NCBI GenBank assembly: GCA_964393545.1
Contig: CAYMUB010000059.1
Span: 4,571-68,570, forward strand
Length of the DNA: 64,000 nucleotides
Direction: 5' to 3'
Source of the DNA: an uncultured Gammaproteobacteria bacterium
GTDB lineage: Bacteria > Patescibacteriota > Microgenomatia > Daviesbacterales > UBA10151
This document shows positions 19,556 to 63,391 of this stretch, one piece after another. Below the pieces are notes generated by a model, which was not told the DNA's origin, searched no databases, and saw nothing but the letters and a program-made list of their open reading frames with translations. Positions within the stretch are counted from its first letter, which is position 1; the number at the start of each line of letters is the position of its first letter. The position numbers and the translations under genes were made by a program.

Positions 19556-20995
19556 ATGACAGATAGTTCAGCCCCGATAAAAAATTTCTTAGAAATCTCC
19601 TACGAACAGCTTGAAGAAATGAATCTCAAGGCCAAAGAAAAACAACAAATTGCAGATCCTAAACAATTAGAAGCAGAATATAGATTATATTTACAAAAAG
19701 AAAAAAAGATTAAAGCTGTAACCTTATGTTTTACTGATATTGAAGGCAGATTCCATATGTTGGATTATGACAAGAAATATTTACTGGAGTCTGCATCTAA
19801 TTTAACATTTGACGGTTCTTCAATCAGAGGTTTCACAGCTCTTCATGAATCAGATCTAAGGCTAGAGGTTGATTGGGGAAGTATTATATGGCTTCCTTCA
19901 GATGTATTTGGAAGCGGTAAGGTGATTATGTTTGCTGACGTATTACAAAGGAATAGATTACCTTATGAGTCAGACTTTAGAAGTCAACTGAAACTATACG
20001 GTAAACAGCTAAAAGACAAAGAAGGCATTACATCTTATACAGCAACAGAAACAGAAGGATTTTTAGTAGAAGGAGTAGGAGCTGAACAGAATTTTGATGA
20101 AGATATTGGATTTAAATTGATTTCTACAGGAGGGTATTATCATTCACTGCCTTTAGATAAATTAAGAAGATTTATTGATGCATCAGCCGAGGCTCAAAGA
20201 GCCATGGGATTTAAAAATGAGAAAGATCATCCAGAAGTTGCCCCTTCGCAATTTGAAGTAAATTATGGTTATACTGAAGTAGTTAGATCTTGTGATCAAA
20301 TTCAACTCTATAAATTAGTTTGTAGACAAGTTGCTAATAATATGGGGATGACAGCAACTTTTCTACCAAAGCCGATTGCCAATATTAATGGTTCTGGGAT
20401 GCATACGAATTTTTCTTTAGGCAAAAATGGCAAAAATATCTTTTATCAAAAAAATGGACTAGATGGTTTATCAAGTTTAGCATGGGATTTCATCCAGAAA
20501 GTATTAAACCATGCTCCAGAAATTTCTTTGGTTTTAAATTCTTCAGTTAATGCTTATAGAAGATTGGATCCACATTTTGAAGCTCCTAACCAGATTAAGG
20601 TTTCCCCAATTGATCGTGGCTCAATGATTAGAATTCCAGCAGGTAATGAAAAAACTGCTAGAATAGAAATTAGATCTGTGGCTCCTGATTCAAACCCTTA
20701 CCTTGTTTTATATACAATTTTGAGAACAGGTTTAGAAGGTAAAAAATTAATCCAACCTAAAAATAGAAGAGAAAGAGCAAGATACTTACCAGGAACTATT
20801 CATGAAGCTCTCAGAATTTTTAAGAGTAGTGATTTTATTGGAAAAATATTAGGAGAAAGTAATAAAGAAAAATATGCAGCTTTCAAAGAAATAGTGGCTG
20901 ATAGGAGTCCAAGGGAGTTAGGAAAAATGGTTAAAACTTCAGAAGTTGTTTACCATCATGAAGTAACAAATCAAGTCTTATGGGGTAAATTTTAA
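19556..20995 (+). CDS. glnA: Glutamine synthetase (type I-like)
   Basis: 479 aa; beta-grasp N-domain FDGSSIRGF, catalytic EVAPSQFEVNYGY region, MHTNFSL. Confidence 0.8.
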   Translation: MTDSSAPIKNFLEISYEQLEEMNLKAKEKQQIADPKQLEAEYRLYLQKEKKIKAVTLCFTDIEGRFHMLDYDKKYLLESASNLTFDGSSIRGFTALHESDLRLEVDWGSIIWLPSDVFGSGKVIMFADVLQRNRLPYESDFRSQLKLYGKQLKDKEGITSYTATETEGFLVEGVGAEQNFDEDIGFKLISTGGYYHSLPLDKLRRFIDASAEAQRAMGFKNEKDHPEVAPSQFEVNYGYTEVVRSCDQIQLYKLVCRQVANNMGMTATFLPKPIANINGSGMHTNFSLGKNGKNIFYQKNGLDGLSSLAWDFIQKVLNHAPEISLVLNSSVNAYRRLDPHFEAPNQIKVSPIDRGSMIRIPAGNEKTARIEIRSVAPDSNPYLVLYTILRTGLEGKKLIQPKNRRERARYLPGTIHEALRIFKSSDFIGKILGESNKEKYAAFKEIVADRSPRELGKMVKTSEVVYHHEVTNQVLWGKF

Positions 20996-22803
20996 TCTAC
21001 ATATCCAAACATTGATTCTGTCAGATTGATATTAGGAGATGACTGACATTTCTTTTCTAAGACATCTTTTGATAATTGTTCCTTAGGGATAATAATTCCA
21101 ATATTTCCAAATTTTTGATCAATTTTATCTAGAGCAAGTTCATAGGGTAATACTATATTGTAGGTTGGAATATTCTCTCCACTTTTTACTGTCTTTAAAT
21201 TATTTAGCCACATAAAATAACGGAATCCAACATTATCACCAATGCTGGTAATATAGTTGATTGCAATGCAAGGAAAATTATTCTGCTTAATATCAGATGC
21301 TATAAACTGAATAACATTCCTTTTTTCCAGATACCCCTTTTTATATTTATTTTGAGTAATAAAATAATAGGAATTTTTTATAACAAGTATGCTTAGTAAA
21401 ACAAATATAAAGTATTTACCAAAACTTTTATTATGATAAATCTTAGAAAAAATTAAACTAACAGATATTATTATAAGAGTATCTAAGGATGCTAAGTAGT
21501 ATTCAGAAACAATAATTGAAGAAAATGTAAAAAACAGAAATACTCCCAAAATCCAGCTATAAAAAATTAGACTTTGCTCTTTCCTCATTACCTTCATTCT
21601 CCAAGCAAAAAAGGGACACAGTAAAATTAATAAAGTTGCAGTATATTTCAAAACTAAAGGTAATCTAAAAGGAGAAAGAAAGATATCATAAATATTTCTA
21701 TTTTCTTTATCTAAGACATTTAGAAACTTATTAACAAAAGTTTTCCAAAAAGGATCCACTGGAATTCTAGCGGAAGCAGTAAGTTTATGAGTGCCTGCTA
21801 AACAACCATTAGTTGACCAGTTAAATTCACCTGAGATACTGCCTATTTCAAATTTCTGGGGTTTACCACAATCTATACTAATAACCATAGTTGAATATTT
21901 AGGGTTTTTTGTAGTTAACTTCAAAACTACATTGTTATTAACTTGAGGGGGGTTTGGTATAATTTCTAAAGCAAATTTTGTTGCAGGGATGAGATTTGAA
22001 GCAGCATAATCTGTTTGTTTATCAAAAGGTATTTCCTTCTCTTCGTAAATGCTATTGCCAGACCCGAAATTAGCGGTGAAATTTCTAATTAAACTTTTGC
22101 TCTGTGAAAAATTATGTCTTGTCTCAAAAACAATAAATGGGGAAGAGGAGATCAACAGTAATATGAGAAAGATTATTATCCCTTTTATTTTAGGAGTTTT
22201 TTTACTTAGAAAAATTGCCAGGGGTAGAGCGATAAGAGTTGGGGTTAAAGCAATATGAATATGCCAGATTAACCCTATCAAAATAGCCAATAGAGGCAAA
22301 ACAGAATAATTGCCTTTGGAAATCATAAAAAGAGAGTACAGGTACCAAATTGCCCATAATTTTGTAGGCAAAGTTGGTACAATCCAACGGTCAAAATTAA
22401 TAGTTGAACTTAAGATTGCATGTAAGAAAGCTGCTATCAAACCAGCAGTCTTGTTGAATATTTTAGTCAGAACAAAATAGTAGCTGAATATTGTAAAAAC
22501 CCCGATTAAAATTCCCAGGATACTTATTCCAATTGGATCCATTCGGGTTAATAGGAAAAAGGGGATTAGCAAATAATAGAAAAATGGCCCAATGAAAACT
22601 CCTGGAGCAGATGTAAGTTGGCCAATCAATCTTGGATGGTGATTTATCAAAATATCTTTAACAATCCAGGAATAAAGATCTGCATCATGGGAAAAATCAA
22701 ACCTCTCAATAATTTGATAAGATCTAAAAAAAATTCCGGTTAGCACTATTACTCCCAGTATTAAATGGGGTTGTTTTTTAAAAAAAGAAACTATAGAGGA
22801 CAT
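20992..22803 (-). CDS. Polytopic membrane glycosyltransferase-like protein (GT-C, ArnT/PMT COG1807-like) with C-terminal extracytoplasmic domain
   Basis: 603 aa; N-terminal multi-TM with LIGQLTSAPGVFIGPFFYYL motif shared with 24575, 26126, 27697, 47456 paralogs. Confidence 0.6.
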   Translation of the reverse strand: MSSIVSFFKKQPHLILGVIVLTGIFFRSYQIIERFDFSHDADLYSWIVKDILINHHPRLIGQLTSAPGVFIGPFFYYLLIPFFLLTRMDPIGISILGILIGVFTIFSYYFVLTKIFNKTAGLIAAFLHAILSSTINFDRWIVPTLPTKLWAIWYLYSLFMISKGNYSVLPLLAILIGLIWHIHIALTPTLIALPLAIFLSKKTPKIKGIIIFLILLLISSSPFIVFETRHNFSQSKSLIRNFTANFGSGNSIYEEKEIPFDKQTDYAASNLIPATKFALEIIPNPPQVNNNVVLKLTTKNPKYSTMVISIDCGKPQKFEIGSISGEFNWSTNGCLAGTHKLTASARIPVDPFWKTFVNKFLNVLDKENRNIYDIFLSPFRLPLVLKYTATLLILLCPFFAWRMKVMRKEQSLIFYSWILGVFLFFTFSSIIVSEYYLASLDTLIIISVSLIFSKIYHNKSFGKYFIFVLLSILVIKNSYYFITQNKYKKGYLEKRNVIQFIASDIKQNNFPCIAINYITSIGDNVGFRYFMWLNNLKTVKSGENIPTYNIVLPYELALDKIDQKFGNIGIIIPKEQLSKDVLEKKCQSSPNINLTESMFGYVD

Positions 22804-22858
22804 CTATTATAGATAGTAACAGCGCCAGATTGAATGTGCAATTGGATGCTGTTAAACT

Positions 22859-23623
22859 ATGTCCTTGATGATTATCAAAGCAATTAAAACAAGAAAATTT
22901 CTACCTCCTAAAGATAATTTAGATGACCTATTGTCGATGATCAAATTTCTAAAAGAGTATTCGATTGTTGCAGTTACTTCTAAAGTAGTAGCTATTTCTG
23001 AAGGAAGATGTATTCCAGTAGATTCAACTACAAAAGATCAGATTGCCATTTCTGAAGCAGAATGGTATATACCTAGAGAGATTTCTCCTAATGGTCAAAT
23101 TCTAAACACTATAAAAAATAATTTACTGGTTGCTTCCTCTGGTGTAGATGAAAGTAATGGTAATGACTATTATATTCTATGGCCAAAAAAACCAAAAGAT
23201 TCTGCTAAAAAAATTTGGAATTATTTAAAGAATAAATTCAAAATTGAGAATTTGGGAGTTATTATTACTGACTCAAGATTGATTCCCCTACGTAGGGGTG
23301 TAGTGGGTCTTGCTATTTCCTATTTTGGTTTTAAACCGATAAAAGATTATAGAGGGAAAAAAGACATATTTGGTAGAAAATTTGTAATGGAAACTTCTAA
23401 TTTTCCTGATAGTCTAGCTTCAGCTGCAGTTTTAGAAATGGGAGAAGGAGCAGAACAGCAACCCATTGCAGTCATTAATCAAATTCCTAATGTTGAATTT
23501 ATTAATAGAGAATACAAGCCTAAATTGGATGACAATTTTGAGATACCTTTAGAAGAGGATATGTTTTCCCCTTTTCTTACTTCAGTTAAATGGAAGAAGG
23601 GTGGGAGCGGAAAAAATCAATAG
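22859..23623 (+). CDS. CofE/FbiB-like (F420-0:gamma-glutamyl ligase family) protein
   Basis: 254 aa; VAVTSKVVAISEGR... resembles CofE core; function in this context uncertain. Confidence 0.45.
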   Translation: MSLMIIKAIKTRKFLPPKDNLDDLLSMIKFLKEYSIVAVTSKVVAISEGRCIPVDSTTKDQIAISEAEWYIPREISPNGQILNTIKNNLLVASSGVDESNGNDYYILWPKKPKDSAKKIWNYLKNKFKIENLGVIITDSRLIPLRRGVVGLAISYFGFKPIKDYRGKKDIFGRKFVMETSNFPDSLASAAVLEMGEGAEQQPIAVINQIPNVEFINREYKPKLDDNFEIPLEEDMFSPFLTSVKWKKGGSGKNQ

Positions 23624-24512
23624 TTTTCTTCAGACCTGAATCCAAGTCTGTTTTGGCGCTCCAGTTTAGTTCATCTCTAATCTTTTGAGACGAGGCTACA
23701 AGAGAAGACACATCTCCTTTTCTTTCGTCTTTATCTTCAATAGGTACTTCATACCCTACAATTTGGAAAATCTTTTTAACAATATCAATTACTTTTGAGC
23801 CGGTTTCAGTTCCTATGTTATATATATTAAATCCGGTTTGATTTAAGGGTGCTATATGAGCATAGGCTAGATCATCTATATAAATAAAATCCCTAATCTG
23901 GTTTCCCTGCCAATAGAGAGGAATTGGTTTTTTATTTAGTACAGCCTTGATAAAATTTGGAATTGCATGAGTTTCCGGAACATGTAGTTCATTAGGACCA
24001 TAAGGGTTAAAATAACGAAGCAGGGTAACATCAAAATTATATAACTTGTGATAAAGTCTACAAAATTGCTCCATGGAAACTTTAGTTAAACCATAAGGGT
24101 TTTCTTGTTCTCCTAGAGGATCATTCTCGGTAATGGGTAATTTTGTTGGTTCTCCATAAACACAGGCACTTGAAGAAAAGATTATTTTCTTAACTCCACT
24201 TTTTCTCATTGCCTCTAAAAGTCTGACAGTTCCTAATATATTATTCTCGGCAAATTCTCCAGCTTTTTTTACTGACTCTCCAACTTCTATCAAAGAAGCC
24301 ATGTGTATAACAACATCATGAGTAGGTAGGATTTGTTCTAGTCTTGTTTGGTCTAGTATGTCGGCCTGGATAAAATTTACTTCAGGATCTATCAATTTCT
24401 GATGTCCTTTGGATAAGTTATCGACAACTGTTACCTGATGGCCGCTTTCTATAAGAAGTTTATTAACATGGGAACCAATAAATCCAGCCCCGCCGGTTAC
24501 TAGTATTTTCAT
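23586..24512 (-). CDS. NAD-dependent epimerase, UDP-glucose 4-epimerase (GalE)-like
   Basis: MKILVTGGAGFIGSH Rossmann N-terminus, YxxxK SDR-e architecture, 308 aa. Confidence 0.8.
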   Translation of the reverse strand: MKILVTGGAGFIGSHVNKLLIESGHQVTVVDNLSKGHQKLIDPEVNFIQADILDQTRLEQILPTHDVVIHMASLIEVGESVKKAGEFAENNILGTVRLLEAMRKSGVKKIIFSSSACVYGEPTKLPITENDPLGEQENPYGLTKVSMEQFCRLYHKLYNFDVTLLRYFNPYGPNELHVPETHAIPNFIKAVLNKKPIPLYWQGNQIRDFIYIDDLAYAHIAPLNQTGFNIYNIGTETGSKVIDIVKKIFQIVGYEVPIEDKDERKGDVSSLVASSQKIRDELNWSAKTDLDSGLKKTIDFFRSHPSSI

Positions 24513-24574
24513 ACGATGAAAATCATTTTAACACAATAGACATAGTCTTTTTAAATCTATATAATTTCCCAACA

Positions 24575-26122
24575 GTGCCTTTTTATATAATAACATCTAA
24601 AAAATTTTTTCTGCTGATTTCAATTTTTGTTTTAGCACTGATTCTAAGATTTTTATATTTTCCGGGTAATATTTACTTTGGTATTGATCAAGCCTCAGGC
24701 TCATTTGCTGTAAAAGAGATATTAGGAGGACAGCCTAAACTGATTGGACCTTCAACTAGTTTTCCAGGTCTACGTCATGGTGTTTTATACTACTATCTTT
24801 ATACACCATTTTATTTAATTGCTAATGGAGATCCGGCCTTAGCAGCAGCTTTTCTAAGGGTTGTAAATGCTTTAGGAATTTTTCTAATCTTTTTTTTAGG
24901 AAAGATTCTGTTCAATGGTTATGTTGGAATCATTGCAAGTTTTCTATTTGCTATTTCGTTTGAACAAACCCAATTTGCTCTTTATTTTAACCATCCCTCA
25001 TTGGCTGTAATTAGTATTCTAATTATGTTTTTAGGACTGAGCATTTTGATATTTCAAAAAAAGCAAATTGGTTTAATACTCGCCTTACTGGGATTGGGAT
25101 TATCAATTCAGTTTGAATTTCTGCTGACTTATTTAAGTGTGCCTTTTGTTTTGATTCTATTAACTTTCAAAAAATCAATACCGGCTTTAAAATTAAGGAC
25201 ACTTTCTTTGGGTCTGATCTTTTTTTTGCTAACAACAGTTACCTTCTTATTTGCTGAAATAAAATTTAATTTTAGATCAGTAAGTTTGCTACCTCAGTTA
25301 CTATTTACCAGTTCACATAAGTCATTATATAAAATAATCTCAACCTATCTTTTTGAGCTTGGACAAGTAATTAAATTTAACCTAGTTGGTTTATCGTCAT
25401 TTGTTTTAGTTATTGGAATAGTTCTCCTTGTTCTATTTATTTTATCCTTCAAAACTAAGGTAAGAAAACAAATGTTTTTTTTGGGTATTTGGTTTTTCTC
25501 CGTCATAACAACCTATATGGTAACCGGGGGTGAAGATATAAGGACAGGCATTTTGCAATATCACCAAAATGTTGGTATCTCCTCAAGTCTAATACTTTTT
25601 GTATCCTACGTATTATATTACCTAGGCAGAAAATTAAGGTATATTACTTATCTAATAATCTTACTGATTGTTTCAGCAAATCTTTACCAGATTACACAAA
25701 TTAATCCTTATGGAAGCATGCCTGAAATTAATGCTCAATCCTTTATGCTTCTTTCAGATGAAAAAAAGGTTTTAGATTTTATATACAATGATGCTGAAGG
25801 TAAACCATTTGCTGTTAAAGGCATTACACTGCCCTTTTATATCAATTCTACTTGGAGCTATCTTTTTGAATGGTATGGTCAGCAAAGATATGGATATTTA
25901 CCAGTCTGGGGAGGAAAAAATGCCATAGGTTATCCAGGTAGCCTTAAAGTGGAAACAGCCCAAAGTAAACTTCCTGATAAAAGATATCTGATAATAGAAC
26001 CAGCTAGAGGCATACCAGTTCATTTAATTAGTGAATATTTAAAAGAAGAAGACTATTTTACGAGTTTACAAAAAGAAGAAAAAATTGGAAATTTTATAGT
26101 GCAAGTAAGAAAAGCAAAGTAA
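24575..26122 (+). CDS. GT-C/ArnT-PMT-like membrane glycosyltransferase paralog
   Basis: 515 aa multi-TM; LIGPSTSFPGLRHGVLYYYLY motif; C-terminal YGYLPVWGG shared with 26126 paralog. Confidence 0.6.
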   Translation: MPFYIITSKKFFLLISIFVLALILRFLYFPGNIYFGIDQASGSFAVKEILGGQPKLIGPSTSFPGLRHGVLYYYLYTPFYLIANGDPALAAAFLRVVNALGIFLIFFLGKILFNGYVGIIASFLFAISFEQTQFALYFNHPSLAVISILIMFLGLSILIFQKKQIGLILALLGLGLSIQFEFLLTYLSVPFVLILLTFKKSIPALKLRTLSLGLIFFLLTTVTFLFAEIKFNFRSVSLLPQLLFTSSHKSLYKIISTYLFELGQVIKFNLVGLSSFVLVIGIVLLVLFILSFKTKVRKQMFFLGIWFFSVITTYMVTGGEDIRTGILQYHQNVGISSSLILFVSYVLYYLGRKLRYITYLIILLIVSANLYQITQINPYGSMPEINAQSFMLLSDEKKVLDFIYNDAEGKPFAVKGITLPFYINSTWSYLFEWYGQQRYGYLPVWGGKNAIGYPGSLKVETAQSKLPDKRYLIIEPARGIPVHLISEYLKEEDYFTSLQKEEKIGNFIVQVRKAK

Positions 26123-26125: not shown

Positions 26126-27670
26126 TTAATATGGTTCCCGAAGTTGGACAGAAATAGTTCCAAACTTCTTTTCTTCGACAATCTTGGTAAAGTATCCCTC
26201 TACTCTTAAGAAATTATCTATATCAAATTTTCTAATTCCTATAGTTGGTTCAATAATTAAAAACTGTTTTTTTGGAAGATTAGATCTAGAGTTAATAGTT
26301 GTAAGATTGCCAGGATATCCTTCAGCTTTAGGACCGATCCAAACAGGAAGATATCCATATTCTTCCTTTCCATACCAATTAAACAAATAATCCCAGGTTG
26401 TATTAATACTAAGTGGTACTGTAAGAGCACCTACTGCAAAAGGCTGACCTTGTAATTGATAATAAATATAATCCAAAACCCTTCTTTGATTTGAGGTAGT
26501 CATACCTGGTTGAATAACCATATCTGAATTTAATCCATTAGGATTGATAGTTGAAATGGAAAATAAGTTATTAGTAATAACAATAACTAGGATAAGAATA
26601 CTTAGAATAACTTTGCCAGAGGAAAAGAGTTTGTTTATTAAATAGGATACAAAAATAAGTAGGCTAACTGAGGTAGCAGGACTATAATAATAACTGTAAA
26701 CACCAGAGAAAATGTAAAGCGACAAACCAAAAACAAACCAAATTATCAAAAAAAGAATCTTTTCTCTTGTTTGTTTTTGGCGGTATAAATAAATTGTTAT
26801 TATCAAAAGCAAAATTCCTAAAAATGGAGTAATTTGATAATTTACTAAAAATGAATCATGTAAGAAACGATTTATAATAAACAAGGTTTCTCTAAAATGT
26901 ACTCCAGAGAAAAAGTGTGATCCTGAGCTATTGGGATATTGGAGAATTAAATTTATCATAAATCTATACTTTAATTCGGTTAAAATAAAGGAGGATGTAG
27001 TTGCGATAAAAATTAGGATGGATAAAACTATCCATTTTATCTTAACTGTTATAATTTTCTTTCTGAAAAAAATAAAAAAGGCAATAAAAGCAGGAACAAG
27101 ATAAGCAAAGCCATAATGAAATTGTATTGATAAACCCAGCCCCAAAACAGATAATAATATTCCCCAAGGTTTCTTCAAAAAAAGATAAAGGCAAAGTCCA
27201 AGATAAAAAAGAAGAACTGTAATAACTGCTAAAGGCTGATGTGAAAGAAATATTGAATATTGTGATTGTTCATACGAAATGGCAAATAAAATAGCAGTAA
27301 TAATGCCGACTCTTTTGTTAAATAAAATTGAAGCAATTGGAAAAACTAGAAATACCCCTAAGGCATTCCAAACTCTAAAGAATGCAGATGCAGCTTCTGG
27401 GCTTTTGTGAAAAAGCAGATAAATGGGTGCATAAAGATAAAATATTAAAGGACCAGGAAAAAGTTTATTGCTTAAAAAAGAAGGAGGACCAATAAGCTTA
27501 AGATCTCCTTTTAGGAGCTCTAAAGAAGTAAATGAATCCCGTGCCTGGTCAAAAGAAAAATGAACATTGTTCGGAAAATACAAGAAGCGTACAATAAGGG
27601 CAATTAGAAAAATAACAAATAAGCAAATAGCAAGCTTATGCTTCAGAAAAAAAATACCCATATGAAACAC
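26126..27670 (-). CDS. GT-C/ArnT-PMT-like membrane glycosyltransferase paralog
   Basis: 514 aa multi-TM; LIGPPSFLSNKLFPGPLIFYLYAP; C-terminal YGYLPVWIGPKAEGYPG. Confidence 0.6.
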   Translation of the reverse strand: MFHMGIFFLKHKLAICLFVIFLIALIVRFLYFPNNVHFSFDQARDSFTSLELLKGDLKLIGPPSFLSNKLFPGPLIFYLYAPIYLLFHKSPEAASAFFRVWNALGVFLVFPIASILFNKRVGIITAILFAISYEQSQYSIFLSHQPLAVITVLLFYLGLCLYLFLKKPWGILLSVLGLGLSIQFHYGFAYLVPAFIAFFIFFRKKIITVKIKWIVLSILIFIATTSSFILTELKYRFMINLILQYPNSSGSHFFSGVHFRETLFIINRFLHDSFLVNYQITPFLGILLLIITIYLYRQKQTREKILFLIIWFVFGLSLYIFSGVYSYYYSPATSVSLLIFVSYLINKLFSSGKVILSILILVIVITNNLFSISTINPNGLNSDMVIQPGMTTSNQRRVLDYIYYQLQGQPFAVGALTVPLSINTTWDYLFNWYGKEEYGYLPVWIGPKAEGYPGNLTTINSRSNLPKKQFLIIEPTIGIRKFDIDNFLRVEGYFTKIVEEKKFGTISVQLREPY

Positions 27671-29226: not shown

Positions 29227-29638
29227 CAGTAATTAAACGCGTATTACCTTCTTCTTTTTTAATTTTTATCCTGGTGGTATTTTTGGGTAGATATTCTTTT
29301 ATTTTTTCCGCCCATTCAATTAATACAATACTATTAGAATTAGACCAAATCTCTTCCAGTCCTAACTGCTTAATATCAGGTATCTTTTCTAATCTATACA
29401 AATCAATATGAAAAAGTGTCCTATTGCTTTTGGATAATTTATGCTGTCTGATTAAAACAAAAGTAGGAGAAATAATTTTTTCTTTAATTCCCAGCTCTTT
29501 AGCAAAGCCTTGTACGAAAGCTGTTTTACCAGCTCCTAAATCTCCACTTAGAGCGATTACCCCTTTAGTTATTTCTTTTGCTAAATTTGCTGCTATTTTC
29601 TTTGTACTTTTAATTGATTTAGATATATATTGTTTCAT
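29219..29638 (-). CDS. tsaE: tRNA threonylcarbamoyladenosine biosynthesis ATPase TsaE (YjeE)
   Basis: 139 aa; Walker A GDLGAGKT and conserved TsaE core. Confidence 0.85.
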   Translation of the reverse strand: MKQYISKSIKSTKKIAANLAKEITKGVIALSGDLGAGKTAFVQGFAKELGIKEKIISPTFVLIRQHKLSKSNRTLFHIDLYRLEKIPDIKQLGLEEIWSNSNSIVLIEWAEKIKEYLPKNTTRIKIKKEEGNTRLITVR

Positions 29639-55207: not shown

Positions 55208-56858
55208 AAAACTTCTGGGATTTTTGATAGCCGGAATTTTAATAATCCCAGCAGTCTGGGCCTTATTTGTGCCGGGATTTTATGGAGCTTCAGATGATAT
55301 TCATATTGGCTGGTTGTTTGAATTTCACAAAACTTTAATGATGGGACAGATTCCTCCCAGATTTGTACCTGATTTAAGTTTTGGTTTTGGTTATCCTTTA
55401 TTTAATTTTGTTTTTCCATTACCCTTTTATATTGCTGAAATTATTCATCTTTTTTTAGGATTTAATTTAGTTGACAGTATCAAAGCTTTATTTTTTCTGA
55501 CCATCCCTTTATCAGGTTTATTTATGTATTTTTTGCTTCGTGAGTACTCGGGTAGATCATTTAGTCTGGCAGGGGCAGTTTTATATATTTATACCCCATA
55601 TAGATCAGTAGACTTATATATCAGAGGGGCAATAGGGGAGATAGTAAGTTTTGTTTTTCTCCCCCTGATATTATTATCAGTTATTAAGCTATCTAAAACT
55701 AGAGGTTTAAAATGGGTAGGGATAGGTGCTATCTCGCTTGCTTCCCTAGTCTTGTCGCACAATATAACAGGATACATGTTTTTTCCTTTTGTAGCTTTAT
55801 TATTTTTATTCCAAACTTTTTTTATCTCTGCGAAAAAACAGTTTATAACTAACTTTTTCCTAATGATTTTTTTAGGACTTTTAATAAGTATTTATTTTTG
55901 GCTACCGGCAATAGTGGATAGCAACTTAATGAAATATGATACTGTTTTCAATTTTGTAGATCACTTTCCTACCATTTCCCAATTGATAACTCCTTATTGG
56001 GGTTATGGAGCATCTGTACCAGGACCCTATGATGGAATGTCTTTTTTCCTGGGAATAACTAATTTACTGGTCTTGGGAATTGGAATAATTTCTATTTTCT
56101 TGTTTTGGAAAAAAATAGAAAAAGAAAAAAGGATTATTTTTATCTGGTCTTTAATATGTATAAGCTGGTCTATGCTCTTAATGAATTATCGGTCTATCTT
56201 TATATGGTCAATTGTCCCAATGTTGCCATATTTTCAGTTTCCCTGGAGATTTTTGATATTAACTACCTTTGCTATACCAATCCTGATAATAATTCTAGAA
56301 AAACTGCCTTTTAATAAATTTATCCCGGCTGTTTTGATTGTTTTAACACTTGTCACATCTGGAAGTTATTTTAGACCACAAGATTTTTTAGGTAGAAAGG
56401 ATGACTATTTTCTTAACCGGTATATCCCAAGTCCTGTGGCTAGTGATGAATATAAAAAAACGCAGGAAGAATATTTAAGATTACCCATAGGAACTCAGGT
56501 TAGGCCAGATAAAATTTACCCCAGAGTCACAAACAATACTAATATTAAAGAGGTTGTAAGTACTGATGATCTTAATGCTCAGATAAAGGTGGAATCAGAT
56601 AAAGGAGCAGTCATAAGTTATAATAAATATTCTTTCCCAGGCTGGGAAGTAAGAATTGATAATCAGGTTGTAGAACACAAAACAGGATCACCATTCGGCC
56701 AGTTAACTTTCTTTGTTCCTTCAGGCCAACATATGATTGAAGTATCCTTTAAAGAAGGCACATTTAAGAAAATACTTGACGCTATATCTTTGGTTGCCTT
56801 TTTAGTATCATTAAGAATGGCATGGACTCGATTAAAAAAATATGGCCCTTCCTCGTAG
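55182..56858 (+). CDS. Tandem paralog 3 of the same membrane protein family
   Basis: 558 aa; QIPPRFVPDLSFGFGYPLFNF, FQFPWRFLIL. Confidence 0.6.
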   Translation: MLKNLKKSKKLLGFLIAGILIIPAVWALFVPGFYGASDDIHIGWLFEFHKTLMMGQIPPRFVPDLSFGFGYPLFNFVFPLPFYIAEIIHLFLGFNLVDSIKALFFLTIPLSGLFMYFLLREYSGRSFSLAGAVLYIYTPYRSVDLYIRGAIGEIVSFVFLPLILLSVIKLSKTRGLKWVGIGAISLASLVLSHNITGYMFFPFVALLFLFQTFFISAKKQFITNFFLMIFLGLLISIYFWLPAIVDSNLMKYDTVFNFVDHFPTISQLITPYWGYGASVPGPYDGMSFFLGITNLLVLGIGIISIFLFWKKIEKEKRIIFIWSLICISWSMLLMNYRSIFIWSIVPMLPYFQFPWRFLILTTFAIPILIIILEKLPFNKFIPAVLIVLTLVTSGSYFRPQDFLGRKDDYFLNRYIPSPVASDEYKKTQEEYLRLPIGTQVRPDKIYPRVTNNTNIKEVVSTDDLNAQIKVESDKGAVISYNKYSFPGWEVRIDNQVVEHKTGSPFGQLTFFVPSGQHMIEVSFKEGTFKKILDAISLVAFLVSLRMAWTRLKKYGPSS

Positions 56859-58525
56859 GTTTAGCTTTGTCTATTAGTTTGCTCTGGCCTATTTTTGTTG
56901 CCCCAACCTTCACCCGCCACGACGATGTGGAAGTGATCAGATTATATGAAATGGACCGCTGTTTTAAAGATCATCAGATCCCCTGTCGCTGGGTTCCAGA
57001 CTTGGGTGGAATGTATGGGTATCCGCTTTTTAACTACTATGCCCCTTTACCCTATTACTTCGGAGAACTTATCTATTTTATAACTCATAGTTTAATAATT
57101 TCTTCAAAAGTCATGTTTATTGTCTCTTTTTTGGGTGCTTATATTTTTATGTATCTTTTAGCAAGAAAATTCTGGGGTAGTTTGGGTGGCAGTTTATCTG
57201 CCATTTTTTATAGCTTTGCTCCCTATCATGCTTTGGATTTTTATGTCAGAGGAGCAATGGGTGAGATGTGGGGATTAATGTTTTTCCCGGCAGTTTTTTG
57301 GGCAGCGGCTAAGCTTAATGAAGAACTGAAAATTTCTAATTTACTACTACTAGCAATTTTCCTGGCAGCTCTTTTTACCTCACATAATATTTCTGCTATG
57401 GTTTTTTTACCCTTTTATCTAATATGGAATTTAGTATTTTTCTGCAAAAGCAGAAGCAAAAAATTTCTTGTCTATGGGGTTGGGGCACTTATTTTAGGAA
57501 CTTTACTTTCAGCGTTCTATCTTTTTCCGGCCAACTTTGAAAAAGAGTTAGTTCATGTTGAAACAACAGTCATAGGATACTTTTCCTACACAGAACATTT
57601 TAAAGGACTTAGAAGACTTCTTTTGGATAGGGCTTGGGCTTATGGGCCTTCTGTTAGAGAAGTGCCTGGAGGGGAGCGGGATTTATTGTCTTATCAAATT
57701 GGATGGGTTCATCTGTTAGGTTTAGTTTTGGCATTAGTTTCAGTTAAGACCCTTTGGAATAAAAATAGACCACTGAGTTGGGTGATAATCTTTTGCTCCG
57801 CCTCAGTTGTATTCCTTGTTTTTATGATCCATCCCAGATCGGTATTTGTTTGGGGATTAATTGAACCTTTAAAATATTTACAGTTCCCCTGGAGGTTATT
57901 ACAACCTTTAATATTTTTTATCTCACTGGCAGCAGGAAGTATATTTGTTTGGGTAAGAAAGAAGAAGCAAATATGGTTGGTACTGGTTTTCTTGGTTGTG
58001 GTATTTAATTTCTCTTATTTTAAGCCTGAAAAGTTCATTCAAACTAGTGATGAAAAACTTTTAACAGGTAGTGAGTGGGAAAGACAAATAATGCGCTCCA
58101 TCTTTGATTTTTTGCCTAAATCTGCTAAAGAACCTCCTGCCCAGCTTGCTAAAGAAAGGTATGAGGTGTTAACAGGGAATAGTAAAGTCTATGATTTCAA
58201 AGAGGGAACAAACTGGTTAAATTTTAAAACAGAAACACAAACACATACTATCATCCGCTTATCCCAGTATTATTTTCCTGATTGGAAGATTCTTGTTGAC
58301 GGAAAGGAAGTAAAATTCGATTATAAAAACAATAGCTTGGGACTTATGACAATTCTTTTGGGAACTGGTAACCATTTTGTAGAAGCTAGATTATATGATA
58401 CTCCGATTAGGTCTATCTCTAATACGATAACCACTATGGCAATTTCTTTGACTTTAATTATATTTATACTGCATTTTGCAAAAGTAAGAAAATGGGTGGG
58501 ATATTATAGAAAGAGAATAAACTAA
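56822..58525 (+). CDS. Tandem paralog 4 of the same membrane protein family
   Basis: 567 aa; QIPCRWVPDLGGMYGYPLFNYY, LQFPWRLLQ. Confidence 0.6.
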   Translation: MDSIKKIWPFLVGLALSISLLWPIFVAPTFTRHDDVEVIRLYEMDRCFKDHQIPCRWVPDLGGMYGYPLFNYYAPLPYYFGELIYFITHSLIISSKVMFIVSFLGAYIFMYLLARKFWGSLGGSLSAIFYSFAPYHALDFYVRGAMGEMWGLMFFPAVFWAAAKLNEELKISNLLLLAIFLAALFTSHNISAMVFLPFYLIWNLVFFCKSRSKKFLVYGVGALILGTLLSAFYLFPANFEKELVHVETTVIGYFSYTEHFKGLRRLLLDRAWAYGPSVREVPGGERDLLSYQIGWVHLLGLVLALVSVKTLWNKNRPLSWVIIFCSASVVFLVFMIHPRSVFVWGLIEPLKYLQFPWRLLQPLIFFISLAAGSIFVWVRKKKQIWLVLVFLVVVFNFSYFKPEKFIQTSDEKLLTGSEWERQIMRSIFDFLPKSAKEPPAQLAKERYEVLTGNSKVYDFKEGTNWLNFKTETQTHTIIRLSQYYFPDWKILVDGKEVKFDYKNNSLGLMTILLGTGNHFVEARLYDTPIRSISNTITTMAISLTLIIFILHFAKVRKWVGYYRKRIN

Positions 58526-58529: not shown

Positions 58530-59993
58530 ATGGTGGAAAGTGTTGAGCAAATAGACCCAACAGAAGGATTAACAGCGGAGGTTGTAAAGAAAAGGGTTGT
58601 TAAAGGTGCAGCCATACTTACGGCTAGAACCTTTTTGATGCAGGCTATCACTTTTGGGTCTACCGCACTTCTAACCCTGTTCTTAAGTCCTTCTCAGTAT
58701 GGAGTCTTCTTTTTAGTTTCAGCGGTTATTAATTTTTTGGCCTACTTTTCTGATATAGGTTTTGCAGCAGCTTTAATACAAAAAAAAGAACAATTAACAC
58801 AAATAGAATTAAAAACTGTATTTACTACTCAACAGATTTTAATACTATTGCTGATTATTTTAGTTTATATGACGACTCCAATAATCAAAAATATTTACCA
58901 TTTAAATGATGAAGCAATTTACCTACTTTGGGCCCTGACATTCTCACTATTGTTATCTTCATTAAAGGTTATTCCTTCTGTTTTAATGGAAAGAAAATTA
59001 GAATTTAATAAGTTAATTGTTCCTCAACTAGTAGAGACTCTTGTTTTTAATGTTGTGGCAGTATTTCTTGCCTGGAAGGATTTTGGGATAACTAGCTTTA
59101 CTATTGCTGTTTTAGTTAGAGGTTTTGTTGGTTTGCTATCAACCTATCTTATTCAACCATGGATGCCTGCATTAGCTTTTTCAAAAGATTCATTAAAATC
59201 TATTCTTAAGTTTGGAGTTCCTTATCAAATGAATACCTTGCTGGCAATGGTTAAGGATGACGGGATGACAATATTTTTAGGAAGCACATTAGGTCCAAAC
59301 GGGATAGGGCTTTTGGCTTGGGCTCAAAAATGGGCTTTTGCTCCCTTAAGATTTTTCATGGATCAGATTATAAAAGTAACTTTTCCGGCTTTTGCAAGAT
59401 TGCAAGATAATAAAAAAGAATTATCTCAAGCTGTAACTAAGTCTATTCTTTATATTTGTTTATTTGTTTTTCCATCCCTGGTAATGTTAGTACTACTTGT
59501 TCCCTCATTAATAGAAATAATTCCTAAATATAACAAATGGAATCCTGCTCTTTCAGCCCTAATAATTTTAACTGCCAGTTCAGCTTTAGCTGCCATTACA
59601 ACGCCAATTACCAATACTTTAAATGCCATAGGTAAGATTTATGTCACTTTTAAACTAATGATTATGTGGACTGTTCTAACTTGGGCTTTTGTACCAATAC
59701 TAGCGATAAATTATGGAGTGACTGGGGCTGCTTTAGGTTTTTCTCTAGTTGGTTTAAGTTCTATTATTGCTTTGATTATTGCTTTAAAATATATAGAAAT
59801 TGATTATTTAAAGATTTTAGGCAAACCTTTAATTACAGCTGTGATAGTAGGGTTAGTAGTGTTTGTAATTAAGTTATTAATACCCATTTCTTTGCTGCAG
59901 GTAATCGTCATGATAGTTGGGGGGTTAATAACTTTTTTTACATTGGTAGTTTTATTGGAACCTCAGATTTTAAATTATCTGAAAAAAAGATGA
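58530..59993 (+). CDS. Polysaccharide/oligosaccharide flippase, Wzx-like (MOP superfamily)
   Basis: 487 aa, ~12-14 TM, N-terminal region typical of polysaccharide biosynthesis protein family (ILTARTFLMQAITFGSTALLTLFLSPSQYG). Confidence 0.65.
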   Translation: MVESVEQIDPTEGLTAEVVKKRVVKGAAILTARTFLMQAITFGSTALLTLFLSPSQYGVFFLVSAVINFLAYFSDIGFAAALIQKKEQLTQIELKTVFTTQQILILLLIILVYMTTPIIKNIYHLNDEAIYLLWALTFSLLLSSLKVIPSVLMERKLEFNKLIVPQLVETLVFNVVAVFLAWKDFGITSFTIAVLVRGFVGLLSTYLIQPWMPALAFSKDSLKSILKFGVPYQMNTLLAMVKDDGMTIFLGSTLGPNGIGLLAWAQKWAFAPLRFFMDQIIKVTFPAFARLQDNKKELSQAVTKSILYICLFVFPSLVMLVLLVPSLIEIIPKYNKWNPALSALIILTASSALAAITTPITNTLNAIGKIYVTFKLMIMWTVLTWAFVPILAINYGVTGAALGFSLVGLSSIIALIIALKYIEIDYLKILGKPLITAVIVGLVVFVIKLLIPISLLQVIVMIVGGLITFFTLVVLLEPQILNYLKKR

Positions 59994-62900: not shown

Positions 62901-63391
62901 TGGCAATTGTGGCGACTGTTTTGATTATAGTAATTACTCCAATTAACTCAATTACTACTTCAAGTTACTACCAAGGTTATTTGCCTCATGCCAGAATTGA
63001 CCCTCAAGAATTAAAAGCCCTGGAGTTTTTATCAAAGCAGCCGGAGGGGATAGTTTTGACTTATCCATACAATGATAAGCTTAAACAGTTAATCTTAGAG
63101 CCCTGGCCGCTTTTTGTATATGATAGTACTGCATATGTTTCTGCTTTATCTGATAAACCGGTGTATTTAGCAGATGAAGGGCAAAACCAGATCCTTTTAA
63201 CTGACTATAAGAAAAGATTAGTTGCCTCAAGGGATTTTTTTGGTAACTCAACCCGGGGCTATAAATTCTTAAAAAATAGTAATATAAAGTATATATACCT
63301 ACCAAAAGTTCATAAAGTCTCTTTAGGTAAAATAGATAATGTAAAGATAATTTTTGAAAATGAAGAGGTAATAATTTATAAAACAAAATAA
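59990..63391 (+). CDS. Large fusion protein: signal peptide + ~470-aa extracytoplasmic domain + C-terminal polytopic membrane domain
   Basis: 1133 aa; N-terminal cleavable signal; C-terminal >12 TM helices related to the partial paralog starting at 63391. Confidence 0.6.
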   Translation: MIKIFYCLIFLVLSFFLDSAVLAQSNSFVSVVNPIRGSDFWSLKDQDPQTAFFGQRDILKKQNIEATWLIRFDALADNKIIDSLKTTSDEKGLFLEVTPIWTKEAGVEYQISESWHSAKSAFLTGYEPYQREKLIDAAFEKFKNIFGSYPKSVGAWWIDSYSLSYMHKKYEIIDALIVADQYTTDNYQIWGQYFSTPYYPSRVNALHPAQTLENKLPVVITQWAARDPVNGYGNGVLESTYSVQANDYLDYHDLDTNYFEKLIDIYTKQKFNKFGHIVVGLENSYEWGKYAKEYENQIKKLAQKRKNNEIFISSLANFANWYKQNFPDLSPAQIIMADDPLGSEKKVVWFMNRFYRAGWFYNEAGSVFRDIRQYIDGKEELCLQKRCDEVNFATSATRVLDEVSFGHKWLIDEGKISDFRLSKEGEKYLITYENEAENSRKIEFMPRDIGVDGKILSIDTTILDAIKSDTQNFKKKNNFEKSGFNWNIGSVVSKITRFLLFILIVCLVPGFVLTNKLFMEEKILKRVFIATITGFVLITITFYVASLLNFRFLLFLYVLVNLFLFFKLKLTSTFKITIPDLKIVDLVIGLVIIIGTIFQNIPSFKNGLVFSFGMGFWGPNTHDGVWHISLINQLVKALPVQNPIFADSILKNYHFFYDLMIAQAVFFTQIPVIDLVFRFYPIVFSLLLGIGTYYLTKSKLAAIFSLYFVYFAGSFGWIVDFIKQKTFAGESAFWANQSISFNLNPPFAISLLIIIALLLMLNSKKIKSFRGIIIMVILAGSLIGFKSYAAVLFFIPLAILALINVLKKDFTLLSVLVLSFILSLVFFISNFQTNQQLVIFSPFWLIHSMVDSMDRVGWVRLSQARVAGIETNNWFKFIIAETVGLLIFIAGNLGIRILAFSSLWKIKGILKDNKQLFLFIFSVVSFLIPILFIQSGNPWNTIQFSYYGLYIAAIVGGGVAASFIIKLPKIVAIVATVLIIVITPINSITTSSYYQGYLPHARIDPQELKALEFLSKQPEGIVLTYPYNDKLKQLILEPWPLFVYDSTAYVSALSDKPVYLADEGQNQILLTDYKKRLVASRDFFGNSTRGYKFLKNSNIKYIYLPKVHKVSLGKIDNVKIIFENEEVIIYKTK

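Follow-up and report, generated by a model that had tools for sequence, protein, structure and literature searches.

An expanded set of GT-C-fold genes in Candidatus Daviesbacteria and its probable role in envelope glycan assembly

The DNA described here comes from Candidatus Daviesbacteria (CPR/Patescibacteria), a groundwater organism with a tiny genome. The window, meaning the whole stretch of 64,000 nucleotides that was analyzed, carries the sugar-precursor, glycosyltransferase and flippase genes collected in Table 1, and genes are named in the text by their first coordinate. The gene content listed in an initial annotation of the window proved real, with every open reading frame found where it had been placed. 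The description of that content as one locus of ~43 kb was not borne out, as unrelated stretches (22859-23623, 29219-37480 and 39175-40368; about 10.2 kb in sum) that include TsaE, FtsEX/M23, release factor, YcaO and other housekeeping genes interrupt the span. It is made up of three units: genes at 20992-29226, a lone DUF2079 gene at 37683, and a dense block from 40521. From there to 64000 all genes except 46269 run in one direction, with overlaps of up to 47 bp and gaps of 24 bp or less. The window end truncates this right-hand block, which continues for at least 10 kb more in relatives, so its real extent differs from the 63391 boundary.

Table 1. Glycan-related genes and a candidate acceptor gene in the window. 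Pfam cut-offs are 26.1 bits for PMT_2, 28.5 bits for YfhO and 26.4 bits for PTPS_related; cut-offs in brackets are those of NCBIfam.
Coordinates	Strand	Assignment	Length (aa)	Evidence
20992..22803	-	GT-C family A (PMT_2/ArnT-like)	603	PMT_2 17 bits, sub-threshold; BLASTP E 1e-21 to 47456 GT-C part
23586..24512	-	UDP-glucose 4-epimerase (GalE-like)	308	NCBIfam galE 270 bits (262.3); Pfam Epimerase
24575..26122	+	GT-C family A	515	40% identity to 26126 (E 9e-107); PMT_2 19 bits; FGIDQAS motif
26126..27670	-	GT-C family A	514	PMT_2 40.4 bits
27697..29226	+	GT-C family A (divergent)	509	BLASTP E 6e-19 to 26126, 6e-14 to 47456; FNMDNAR motif
29635..30918	-	Membrane-anchored Lamin-tail-domain surface protein, speculative candidate acceptor		Pfam LTD
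37683..39161	+	DUF2079 protein with GT-C fold	492	Pfam DUF2079 above gathering score
40521..41603	+	Glucose-1-phosphate thymidylyltransferase, long form (RmlA)		NCBIfam rmlA_long 336 bits (320)
41600..42604	+	dTDP-glucose 4,6-dehydratase (RmlB)		NCBIfam 446 bits (365)
42604..43152	+	dTDP-4-dehydrorhamnose 3,5-epimerase (RmlC)		Pfam dTDP_sugar_isom 152 bits; NCBIfam rmlC 134 bits, just below cut-off (156)
43149..44033	+	dTDP-4-dehydrorhamnose reductase (RmlD)		Pfam RmlD_sub_bind 217 bits; NCBIfam rmlD 213 bits, just below cut-off (224)
44058..45071	+	GDP-mannose 4,6-dehydratase-like (Gmd)		Pfam GDP_Man_Dehyd 319 bits; NCBIfam gmd best match, 316 bits, below cut-off (415)
45055..46272	+	GT2 polyprenyl-phosphate sugar synthase with C-terminal GtrA/DPMS-type TM domain	405	Pfam Glycos_transf_2 and GtrA_DPMS_TM
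46269..47438	-	Putative small GT-C-like membrane protein, ~7 TM	389	PMT_2 20.8 bits, sub-threshold
47456..49642	+	Fusion of N-terminal GT2 (polyprenyl-P sugar synthase-like) and C-terminal GT-C family A	728	Glycos_transf_2 99 bits; PMT_2 42.5 bits
49639..50376	+	GT2 without TM segments	245	Glycos_transf_2 97 bits; nearest PDB relatives GtrB 5ekp, ArnC, DPMS
50382..51899	+	GT-C family A (PMT/PMT_2)	505	PMT_2 49.4 bits, PMT 32.8 bits, each exceeding its cut-off; ADEAIY motif
51901..53598	+	GT-C family B paralogue 1 (YfhO/PTPS_related)		YfhO 42.3 bits
53552..55207	+	GT-C family B paralogue 2		PTPS_related 64.9 bits
55182..56858	+	GT-C family B paralogue 3		29-32% identity to other B paralogues, E 1e-63 to 1e-78
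56822..58525	+	GT-C family B paralogue 4		33-38% identity to 51901 and 53552, E about 1e-100
58530..59993	+	MOP-superfamily (Wzx-like) flippase	487	Pfam Polysacc_synt_3 175 bits; NCBIfam MOP flippase 151 bits
59990..63391	+	Family C	1133	Predicted structure
63391..64000	+	Family C paralogue without N-terminal domain, partial at window end		36% identity to 59990 over 100 aa

The precursor genes named in the initial annotation (rmlABCD, gmd and a galE-like gene) are all present by Pfam and NCBIfam, with rmlC, rmlD and gmd scoring under the NCBIfam equivalog cut-offs. The GDP-sugar branch is incomplete in the window, where gmd is present and neither a reductase nor ManC was detected. The three GT2 proteins, earlier called Dpm1-like, are indeed Dpm1/GtrB/ArnC-like: their nearest relatives are polyprenyl-phosphate sugar synthases (PfDPMS, ArnC and GtrB) and their best NCBIfam matches are PgfS, ArnC, Dol-P-hexose transferase and PpgS. 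The closest PDB relative of 45055 is the P. furiosus DPMS 5mlz (E 5e-26 over residues 10-357), while the GT2 part of 47456 is nearest to ArnC, DPMS and GtrB. The fusion in 47456 is kept in relatives (739 aa in L043, for example), and its predicted topology is self-consistent, running from a cytoplasmic GT2 through one TM segment to an outward-facing DE motif, the GDEGRD that follows the first TM segment. Both Pfam and NCBIfam place the proposed Wzx-like flippase in the MOP superfamily.

At least 14 multi-TM GT-C-like proteins had been claimed for the span, and all 14 are GT-C-like by Pfam, paralogy or predicted fold. The initial annotation had raised the question of whether most of these membrane proteins belong to non-glycosyltransferase families, and none of the 14 was assigned to such a family. 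They are polytopic, with 6-14 TM segments predicted from hydropathy (three so far in the partial 63391), and comprise four families: PMT_2/ArnT-like family A (seven), YfhO/PTPS_related family B (four), DUF2079 (one) and family C (two). Pfam gathering scores are exceeded by 26126, 50382 and the C-terminal part of 47456 (PMT_2), 51901 (YfhO), 53552 (PTPS_related) and 37683 (DUF2079). BLASTP ties 20992, 24575 and 27697, the last without a match in the Pfam search, to 47456 or 26126 (E 1e-14 to 1e-107), and 55182 and 56822 to 51901 or 53552 (E 1e-63 to 1e-107). An Asp after the first TM segment is conserved in all 14, following a four-helix lead-in in family C. In 20992, a protein of about 10 TM segments with a soluble insert of ~100 aa, it lies in the motif FSHDADL, and in family B a DD after TM1 is invariant. 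Families A and B are homologous across the N-terminal catalytic module (hhalign 97.6%). The B paralogues share 55-70% identity with their own orthologues in relatives versus 29-38% with one another, and are therefore old and diverged. The start of the 50382 gene was set at 50400 by a gene caller.

The weakest of the 14 assignments is 46269, which sequence comparison only tentatively places among the GT-Cs through an NCBIfam match to a "cell surface glycopolymer formation protein" (E 1.7e-6) and a collinear hhalign alignment with 50382 orthologues (E 7e-4). It adjoins the GT2-GT-C fusion by synteny in many relatives.

Family C appears from structure prediction to be a previously unannotated family of GT-C enzymes. 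Pfam and NCBIfam searches with the 1133-aa product of 59990 gave no match. In its structure model, of moderate quality (pLDDT 77, pTM 0.56), a signal-anchor leads into a DUF3863/deacetylase-like barrel on the extracytoplasmic side (about residues 25-460), followed by a membrane domain with the GT-C fold (about 490-1000) and by a C-terminal domain; D623 and D658 are among its conserved Asp residues. Orthologues of 63391 are 662-672 aa long in relatives, the truncated gene being extended in L001, and a full-length orthologue aligns with residues 498-1133 of 59990 at 31% identity (E 4e-78).

Among 43 species-level Daviesbacteria genomes in which the locus has its whole 10-kb upstream flank, 41-42 preserve the synteny of the core block. 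The recurring order is 46269 (minus strand), GT2-GT-C fusion, GT2, 50382, zero to four B copies, Wzx, family C gene and its paralogue. Wzx adjoins the family C gene in 41 of the 43 loci, and a 50382-like gene lies upstream in 42. Downstream of the block, relatives carry PMT_2 GT-Cs, two GT2s and one GT4.

Taken together, these genes probably encode a greatly expanded form of "multi-component transmembrane glycosylation" machinery that builds or decorates a rhamnose- or deoxyhexose-containing envelope glycan, a sugar content suggested by the precursor genes. This type of machinery is known; what is new here is its unusual expansion and the one previously unannotated enzyme family. The earlier proposal of lipid-linked sugars and periplasmic-face transfer is supported in its general form by the family and fold assignments, and the co-location of three GT2s, a GtrA-type TM domain and a MOP flippase also leads to a reading of outer-face transfer. 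The analogy with an O-antigen pathway fares less well, as Pfam found no priming phosphoglycosyltransferase, Wzy, LCP or WaaL-type ligase within the window. The pathway would begin with cytoplasmic dTDP-L-rhamnose (RmlABCD), a GDP-6-deoxyhexose precursor (Gmd) and UDP-Gal (GalE). At the membrane's inner face, the three GT2s would then attach single sugars to polyprenyl phosphate. Candidates for flipping the resulting lipid-linked sugars are the MOP flippase 58530 and the GtrA-type domain of 45055. For 58530, a lipid-PP-oligosaccharide is the more probable cargo, assembled by GT2/GT4 enzymes whose genes in relatives lie just beyond the window end. At the outer face, the GT-C-fold enzymes of the four families, numbering at least 14, would transfer the sugars and jointly make and decorate the glycan. 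Lying directly after the flippase gene, 59990 may transfer or extend the flipped glycan and modify it with its deacetylase/glycosidase-like extracytoplasmic domain. To our knowledge there is no established route to polyprenyl-P-rhamnose donors, and rhamnose may therefore enter through cytoplasmic glycosyltransferases encoded outside the window.

As acceptor we prefer a wall-associated glycopolymer to protein. Our model is patterned on systems in which a GT-A C55-P-sugar synthase, a GtrA flippase and a GT-C of the YfhO or PMT_2 type act on teichoic acids, rhamnan or SCWP (PMC8035078). A credible if unlikely alternative is that the main role is protein O-glycosylation, with PMT/PMT_2-like GT-Cs moving sugars from polyprenyl phosphate to Ser/Thr-rich secreted or membrane-anchored proteins such as an S-layer protein, pilins or sortase substrates, as with actinobacterial Pmt and with streptococcal GtrB/GT-C, which acts on Ser/Thr-rich disordered regions. 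The glycosylation of such streptococcal regions is reported in a bioRxiv paper, and the best NCBIfam match of the GT2s, PgfS, is a streptococcal protein-glycosylation enzyme. The PMT match of 50382 and the DE motif that it shares with 47456 also fit this alternative, as does the LTD protein encoded between the clusters and, in L035, next to the glycosyltransferase block. This membrane-anchored protein has two Ser/Thr/Pro-rich linkers; its sequence contains PLETPTSTPTPTPITTPSPATPP, a second Ser/Thr-rich stretch in which 17 of 30 residues are Ser or Thr, and a TM segment at the C-terminus. However, a Pfam search of the window proteins found no MIR domain in any GT-C member, and teichoic-acid glycosylation is a known role of YfhO-type enzymes (PMC8035078). 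One or two GT-Cs are enough for known protein O-glycosylation, whereas the diverged paralogues here, at least 14 in number and accompanied by a deacetylase-like domain and a MOP flippase, more closely resemble polymer assembly and decoration.

Because housekeeping genes separate the genes at 20992-29226 from the block at 40521 and the DUF2079 gene is not syntenic, the 14 enzymes may serve several unrelated targets. Carried further, this would make the 43 kb locus an artefact, a set of independent GT2 plus GT-C modules brought together by chance or rearrangement, which we consider quite unlikely. Genes of the 20992-29226 type do change position relative to the block from 40521 (L027, L030, L032 and L042), the DUF2079 gene adjoins glycan genes in the present genome only and is found elsewhere in a relative, and B. 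subtilis and L. lactis each have separate GT-A/GT-C pairs, about three per species, that act on different targets (PMC8035078). Against this, the block from 40521 is densely packed and conserved in order across the lineage, GT-C-like genes number 14 of 38 in the span versus 0 of 20 upstream (Fisher p = 0.001), and at least 14 GT-Cs are accompanied by only three GT2s, so donors must be common to the GT-Cs.

Mycobacteria have clusters of distinct GT-Cs (PimE/Mpt/Aft/Emb), and a lipoglycan line of the lipomannan/LAM type, in which polyprenyl-P-mannose (or its counterpart with another hexose) comes from a DPMS-like GT2 and each GT-C adds one linkage type to an outer-face glycolipid, would account for the similar clustering here, for the resemblance of 45055 to a Dol-P-Man synthase, TM part included, and for a GT87-like gene between B paralogues in L026 and L046; it is nonetheless very doubtful, as the window contains neither a PI-mannoside-type GT-B/GT4 starter nor an acyltransferase, GDP-mannose pyrophosphorylase was undetected there, and fold matches to mycobacterial enzymes are no better than those to OST, ALG, PMT and ArnT.

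The suggestion that a large share of a small genome is devoted to these genes was approximately right. Glycan genes in the window occupy 32.4 kb, an in-window figure only, as further glycan genes lie beyond it, and this corresponds to 2.9-4.0% of the contigs or chromosomes of relatives (0.82-1.13 Mb).

The glycosylation genes from 20992 onward (genes are named here by their start coordinates) belong to a known kind of machinery, and what is new about them is an unusually dense, lineage-conserved expansion of GT-C glycosyltransferases. The preceding part of the window consists of ordinary bacterial housekeeping genes, with no glycosyltransferase in 20 upstream genes, while 14 of the 38 ORFs from 20992 onward are the polytopic membrane proteins listed in the initial annotation (Fisher p = 0.001 against the flank). 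That annotation described a single locus of ~43 kb. Its genes are real, but they are not contiguous: glycan-related genes fill 32.4 kb of the 43.0-kb span and form three units, unrelated genes take up 10.2 kb, and the right end, in unit III, is truncated by the end of the window. Genes of unit III overlap or lie no more than 24 bp apart, and the unit is therefore probably one or two operons. A scan of positions 37000-48000 for consensus promoters and terminators found sites no commoner than in shuffled sequence, so operon boundaries were left undefined. Rfam and tRNA scans gave no match within the locus, their sole match being a tRNA-Glu in the housekeeping region.

Features of the window and their coordinates (a single number is the start of the gene)
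Feature	Coordinates	Strand	Content
Upstream housekeeping genes	first 21 kb		Lon protease, H+-pyrophosphatase, two-component regulatory pair, GreA, class I LysRS, SerRS, SecA, glutamine synthetase
Membrane H+-pyrophosphatase	3266-5272	+	
tRNA-Glu	7232-7306		
Gene pair, apparent tandem duplication	7870-12468	+	weakly M49-peptidase-like proteins (7870-9153; 10218-11534), each followed by a ~290-aa unannotated protein (9210-10106; 11599-12468)
Class I lysyl-tRNA synthetase	12528-14093	+	
Unit I	20992-29226		four family A genes and galE
Family A gene with insertion	20992-22803	-	
CofE-like gamma-glutamyl ligase	22859-23623	+	unrelated gene among GT-C genes
Unrelated stretch	29219-37480		TsaE, LTD surface protein, M23/PcsB-like peptidase, FtsX, FtsE, release factor, YcaO, three ORFs without annotation
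TsaE	29219-29638	-	
Lamin-tail-domain (LTD) protein	29635-30918	-	
YcaO	35227-36471	-	
ORF, 179 aa	36452-36991	-	
ORF, 155 aa	37013-37480	-	
Unit II	37683		DUF2079 gene alone
Unrelated stretch	39175-40368		TsaB-like fragment and CAP-domain protein
ORF, 104 aa	39175-39489	+	
Unit III	40521 to window end		co-directional apart from 46269
Family A	20992, 24575, 26126, 27697, 46269, 47456 (C-terminal part), 50382		PMT_2/ArnT-like
Family B	51901, 53552, 55182, 56822		YfhO/PTPS_related, four tandem paralogues
Family C	59990, 63391 (partial)		
GT2s	45055, 47456 (N-terminal part), 49639		
Flippase	58530		MOP/Wzx-type

Within the unrelated stretches, the similarity of the 104-aa ORF to the TsaD/TsaB family is confined to the family's N-terminal part, which makes its product a truncated version of a TsaB-like protein. 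TsaE is encoded on the opposite strand at a distance of 10 kb, and both border glycosylation clusters. The best NCBIfam match of the CofE-like gene in unit I is 'putative folate metabolism gamma-glutamate ligase' (235 bits, under the cut-off). A horizontally acquired island was rejected as an origin for the locus, because its GC (0.31-0.36) is similar to that of the flank (0.34-0.39; ~33-36% throughout the window), no integrase or flanking tRNA is present, and the synteny of the block recurs in 41-42 of 43 species genomes.

The content beyond the window end was judged from relatives. In the closest, locus L069 (80% identity), 59990 is followed by C2, a family C paralogue without the N-terminal domain, then by an opposite-strand C-like gene and, further downstream, by two PMT/PMT_2 proteins (560 and 551 aa), an unannotated multi-TM protein and another PMT protein. 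In L026, another relative's locus, unit III continues into PMT_2/STT3-like GT-Cs, two GT2s and one GT4. Because these relatives continue with more such genes, the true cluster is probably larger than was thought and likely contains the cytoplasmic glycosyltransferases implied by a Wzx-type flippase. The C2 paralogue of L069 (13408-15263) was called as two genes of 406 and 212 aa, possibly because of a frameshift or because it is a pseudogene.

All-against-all BLASTP sorted the 14 membrane proteins into four groups: families A, B and C and a DUF2079 protein. Each of the 13 complete candidates has 6-14 TM segments by simple hydropathy, the AlphaFold2 models of 59990 and 37683 are multi-helix bundles with the GT-C fold, and a conserved acidic residue in the first extracytoplasmic loop, as expected of the GT-C superfamily, is found across the families. 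Twelve of the assignments are solid, 46269 is probably a GT-C, and the partial gene is predicted to be one from fold and paralogy. None of the candidates fell into a non-glycosyltransferase family. The earlier count of at least 14 multi-TM GT-C-like proteins, which the placing of most of them in such families would have undermined, therefore holds.

Three members of family A pass the Pfam PMT_2 gathering score, and 20992, 24575 and 27697 are joined to them by BLASTP at E values of 1e-14 to 1e-107. The conserved Asp of the family lies in F-x-x-D-x-[AG] or DE. The PMT model is passed as well by 50382 (32.8 bits against a cut-off of 22.7), which with its 'ADEAIY' motif is the sole protein to combine a PMT domain with DE (GT39); a MIR domain, expected of protein O-mannosyltransferases, was found in none of the proteins at E <= 0.01. 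The match of 46269 to PMT_2 is sub-threshold (20.8 bits), and it matches the NCBIfam 'cell surface glycopolymer formation protein' at E 1.7e-6. With orthologue alignments hhalign gave it a collinear match at E ~5-7e-4 and 27-33% probability, in a run that scored known relatives poorly; single-sequence hhalign of 46269 and the DUF2079 protein against alignments A1 and A2 was uninformative. In relatives 46269 is kept beside the GT2-GT-C fusion, 47456. Compared with its paralogues in A1, 20992 carries an insertion of ~100 aa at residues ~300-400 that contains Cys and may be an extra soluble domain.

Pfam cut-offs are passed by two members of family B. Only 51901 reaches the YfhO gathering score (42.3 against 28.5 bits, spanning profile positions 70-390 of 835), and the three other paralogues match PTPS_related, not YfhO. 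An invariant 'DD' directly follows TM1 in this family, and its N-terminal module is homologous to that of family A (hhalign probability 97.6%); its profile found no match among PDB sequences. The DUF2079 protein matches its Pfam family, described only as 'predicted membrane protein', at 166 bits. Its model, built from 61 homologues, has a pLDDT of 93, D62 and D92-H93 are nearly invariant in those 61 sequences, and at the level of predicted fold the protein appears to be a GT-C. As a fixed component of the locus it was rejected, since the surrounding genes are unrelated in a 60%-identical relative.

Family C has no sequence match in Pfam, NCBIfam or PDB (phmmer/hmmsearch), hhalign found no significant similarity to family A or B, and predicted structure alone placed it. 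In the model of 59990 from 43 orthologues (pLDDT 77, pTM 0.56), a signal anchor leads into a barrel outside the cytoplasm (residues ~25-460), which is followed by a membrane domain of 13 helices and, at the C terminus, an alpha/beta domain. All 43 sequences keep D623 and D658, which C2 shares and which come after four lead-in helices rather than TM1. The modelled barrel has the NodB-type fold of CE4 enzymes. On the evidence of the model, we consider family C a newly recognised GT-C family with a fused deacetylase-like domain. The partial gene 63391 is a paralogue of residues 498-1133 of 59990 only; over this stretch its orthologue is 31% identical to 59990 (E 4e-78). The family is small, counting 1,926 representatives of 50%-identity clusters (E <= 1e-3) among 1.84 billion, and is found as the fusion, the membrane part alone or the N-domain alone. 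In the loci L055-L062, L066 and L068 (Amesbacteria and others) only the DUF3863-like N-domain (residues ~8-358) is matched, beside GT2 and epimerase genes, so this domain also occurs outside the fusion, in other glycan loci.

Polyprenyl-phosphate glycosyltransferases are the closest solved structures to the three GT2s, all of which carry Pfam Glycos_transf_2. The match of 45055 to the P. furiosus Dol-P-Man synthase (5mlz, E 5e-26) includes the TM part, and its GT2 continues into a GtrA_DPMS_TM domain (66 bits); no stand-alone GtrA gene was found in the window. The N-terminal part of 47456 and 49639 match ArnC, DPMS and GtrB. For all three, the NCBIfam models PgfS, ArnC, Dol-P-hexose transferase and PpgS rank first or close to it, with PgaC narrowly above PgfS for the N-terminal part of 47456 and all scores far under the equivalog cut-offs. 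The topology of 47456 is self-consistent (cytoplasmic GT2, one TM, DE motif outside) and its fusion is conserved in relatives. With three such polyprenyl-phosphate-sugar-synthase-like enzymes co-located, a polyprenyl-phosphate(-diphosphate)-linked sugar is the putative donor for the GT-Cs. The flippase scores 175 bits against Polysacc_synt_3 and 151 bits against MOP flippase.

All four enzymes of the dTDP-L-rhamnose pathway are encoded. RmlA_long (336 bits, cut-off 320) and RmlB (446, 365) exceed their equivalog cut-offs, and RmlC (134, 156) and RmlD (213, 224) fall just under theirs as unambiguous top matches with strong Pfam support. Gene 23586 passes as GalE and 44058 is Gmd-like, under the cut-off; neither ManC nor an enzyme completing GDP-6-deoxyhexose was detected.

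Orthologues of 59990 with 56-80% identity occur in Candidatus Daviesbacteria and other Microgenomates. When one genome of each GTDB species was scanned, 67 loci came to light, ~50 of them with full-length orthologues, nearly all from Daviesbacteria, Microgenomates or Patescibacteria and including a complete chromosome of 820,589 bp. These orthologues and the species scan place the window in a CPR bacterium whose genome is roughly 1 Mb in size. The order 46269(-), GT2-GT-C fusion, GT2, 50382, family B (zero to four copies), Wzx, family C, C2 recurs in Daviesbacteria, and more weakly in Collierbacteria and other Microgenomates. A complete upstream flank was available for 43 loci, of which 41 keep Wzx beside family C and 42 have a 50382-like gene upstream. 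Family B has no copy in one of these loci, one in six, two in 15, three in 12 and four in nine. Each paralogue in the window has its own orthologue elsewhere that is 55-70% identical, and the paralogues are 29-38% identical to one another, so the duplications are old and the copies have diverged, as is expected for differing linkage or acceptor specificities. In L026 and L046 (~5836-7321) the row of family B paralogues is interrupted by an additional multi-TM gene that is GT87-like. Genes of the unit I type lie directly beside unit III in four relatives (L027, L030, L032 and L042), and the LTD-TsaE pair abuts the glycosyltransferase block in L035; because of these arrangements, units I and III are plausibly one repertoire split by rearrangement.

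The closest known counterparts are the multi-component transmembrane glycosylation systems of Gram-positive bacteria (CsbB/GtcA/YfhO, GtlA/GtlB, GacI/GacL, CsdAB-EF and GtsABC; PMC8035078), which consist of three types of part: a membrane GT-A/GT2 that makes polyprenyl-phosphate-sugar, a GtrA-type flippase module, for which the window has a putative counterpart in the TM domain of 45055, and a polytopic, outer-acting GT-C whose domain is YfhO or PMT_2. The rhamnan loci of streptococci and lactococci also resemble the window in having rml genes close by. In contrast to the one GT-C per GT-A and ~1-3 pairs per genome of those systems, at least 14 GT-Cs accompany three GT2s here, in ~43 kb of a ~1-Mb genome. 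Moreover, one GT2 and one GT-C form a single protein, another GT2 carries the GtrA module, and two further GT-C families, DUF2079 and family C, are present. The Gram-positive systems have a defined envelope acceptor (LTA, WTA, rhamnan or SCWP), whereas no acceptor-synthesis genes were recognised in the window.

The mycobacterial envelope is built by many diverged GT-Cs (Emb, Aft, PimE, Mpt) that act stepwise outside the membrane with polyprenyl-phosphate-monosaccharide donors. The number of GT-Cs is comparable to that found here, and the comparison draws on fold matches as well. The GT-C families differ, however, with no Arabinose_trans or GT87 match in the window, the genome is ~four times smaller, and no arabinose or galactofuranose precursor genes are present. 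A resemblance to the ArnC/ArnD/ArnEF/ArnT pathway stays at the level of fold or weak profile: ArnT is the best solved relative of the family A profile, but weakly so (PDB sequence search, E 0.034), and the deacetylase-like domain is here fused to a GT-C and predicted to face outward. CPR bacteria are not known to have lipid A or an outer membrane, unlike the hosts of the lipid A aminoarabinose pathway. For the N-domain of 59990, the modelled fold suggests BDI_3119 (PDB 3lm3; Pfam DUF3863, 'putative glycoside hydrolase/deacetylase') and the seven-stranded barrels of CE4/GH57 type as comparators, although Pfam and PDB profile searches gave no significant sequence match and the domain is here fused to a GT-C membrane domain. 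Wzx/Wzy O-antigen and capsule loci likewise place a MOP flippase beside nucleotide-sugar genes (rml, gmd) and glycosyltransferases, but GT-C enzymes dominate here rather than cytoplasmic GT-A/GT-B enzymes. Priming phosphoglycosyltransferase, Wzy, ligase and chain-length regulator were undetected in the window, where no ORF matched Bac_transf, Glycos_transf_4 (MraY/WecA), Wzy_C or Wzz; the missing genes could lie outside it. The initial annotation was right in kind in proposing lipid-linked, outer-face glycosyl transfer, and its O-antigen-type pathway is not borne out within the window.

We propose that a lipid-PP-oligosaccharide, probably with rhamnose, would be built by cytoplasmic glycosyltransferases encoded past the end of the window, and that the MOP protein 58530 would flip it. 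Family C would then transfer, extend or edit the flipped glycan, a role suggested by gene order, the predicted OST/ALG-like fold and the fused deacetylase/glycosidase-like domain. Single sugars from polyprenyl-phosphate donors would be added to the product by families A and B and perhaps by the DUF2079 protein. We favour a wall glycopolymer as the acceptor because of the YfhO-type enzymes, the polysaccharide-modifying domain, the rml genes and the many diverged paralogues. Protein O-glycosylation is a serious rival, to which the PMT-like 50382 and the Ser/Thr/Pro-rich, membrane-anchored LTD protein between the clusters point. The LTD protein begins with a signal/TM segment, has two Ser/Thr/Pro-rich linkers and ends in a TM anchor, and from these features is a possible O-glycosylation substrate. 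A lipoglycan is a possible acceptor as well. A bolder scheme can be drawn that we think unlikely to be right: Daviesbacteria would assemble a lineage-specific envelope heteropolysaccharide almost wholly outside the cell, in a mycobacterium-like manner but from a 1-Mb genome, with ~20 GT-Cs fed by three lipid-phosphate-sugar synthases. Family C, encoded right after the flippase, would in this scheme be a new bifunctional ligase/polymerase-modifier that transfers the lipid-PP-glycan en bloc, like oligosaccharyltransferase, and edits it.

The cell envelope of CPR/Patescibacteria is largely undescribed. Previous CPR studies noted rmlABCD with many glycosyltransferases and speculated on glycosylated S-layers or rhamnose wall polysaccharides (PMC5220378, PMC11809585), and Patescibacteria have been described as depleted in nucleotide-sugar and polysaccharide functions (PMC7137472). 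A survey of CPR protein families found 35 that are enriched in Microgenomates; most are hypothetical and 14 are membrane proteins, and glycosylation goes unmentioned (PMC6744442). Among the papers searched, none dealt with a GT-C expansion of CPR bacteria, with DUF2079 or with DUF3863. The devotion of at least 3-5% of a ~1-Mb genome to outer-face glycosyltransferases, lineage-wide, points to a complex surface glycan important for the lineage, which could serve host attachment, phage resistance or envelope integrity. The YfhO-like copy number of 0-4 suggests that glycan structure varies among species. Two families without functional annotation, DUF2079 and family C, gain one at the level of predicted fold, and the three GT2 donors, four GT-C families and new DUF3863-GT-C fusion family offer concrete targets.

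Elsewhere in the window, the best NCBIfam match of the YcaO gene is the TOMM cyclodehydratase SagD family, under the cut-off. It follows two ORFs without annotation, of which the 179-aa one has no family match and the first, of 155 aa, ends in SREKRGICCCT; judging by its sequence, its product could be the leader-plus-core precursor of an azoline-type RiPP. The housekeeping region includes a class I lysyl-tRNA synthetase, a type more typical of archaea.
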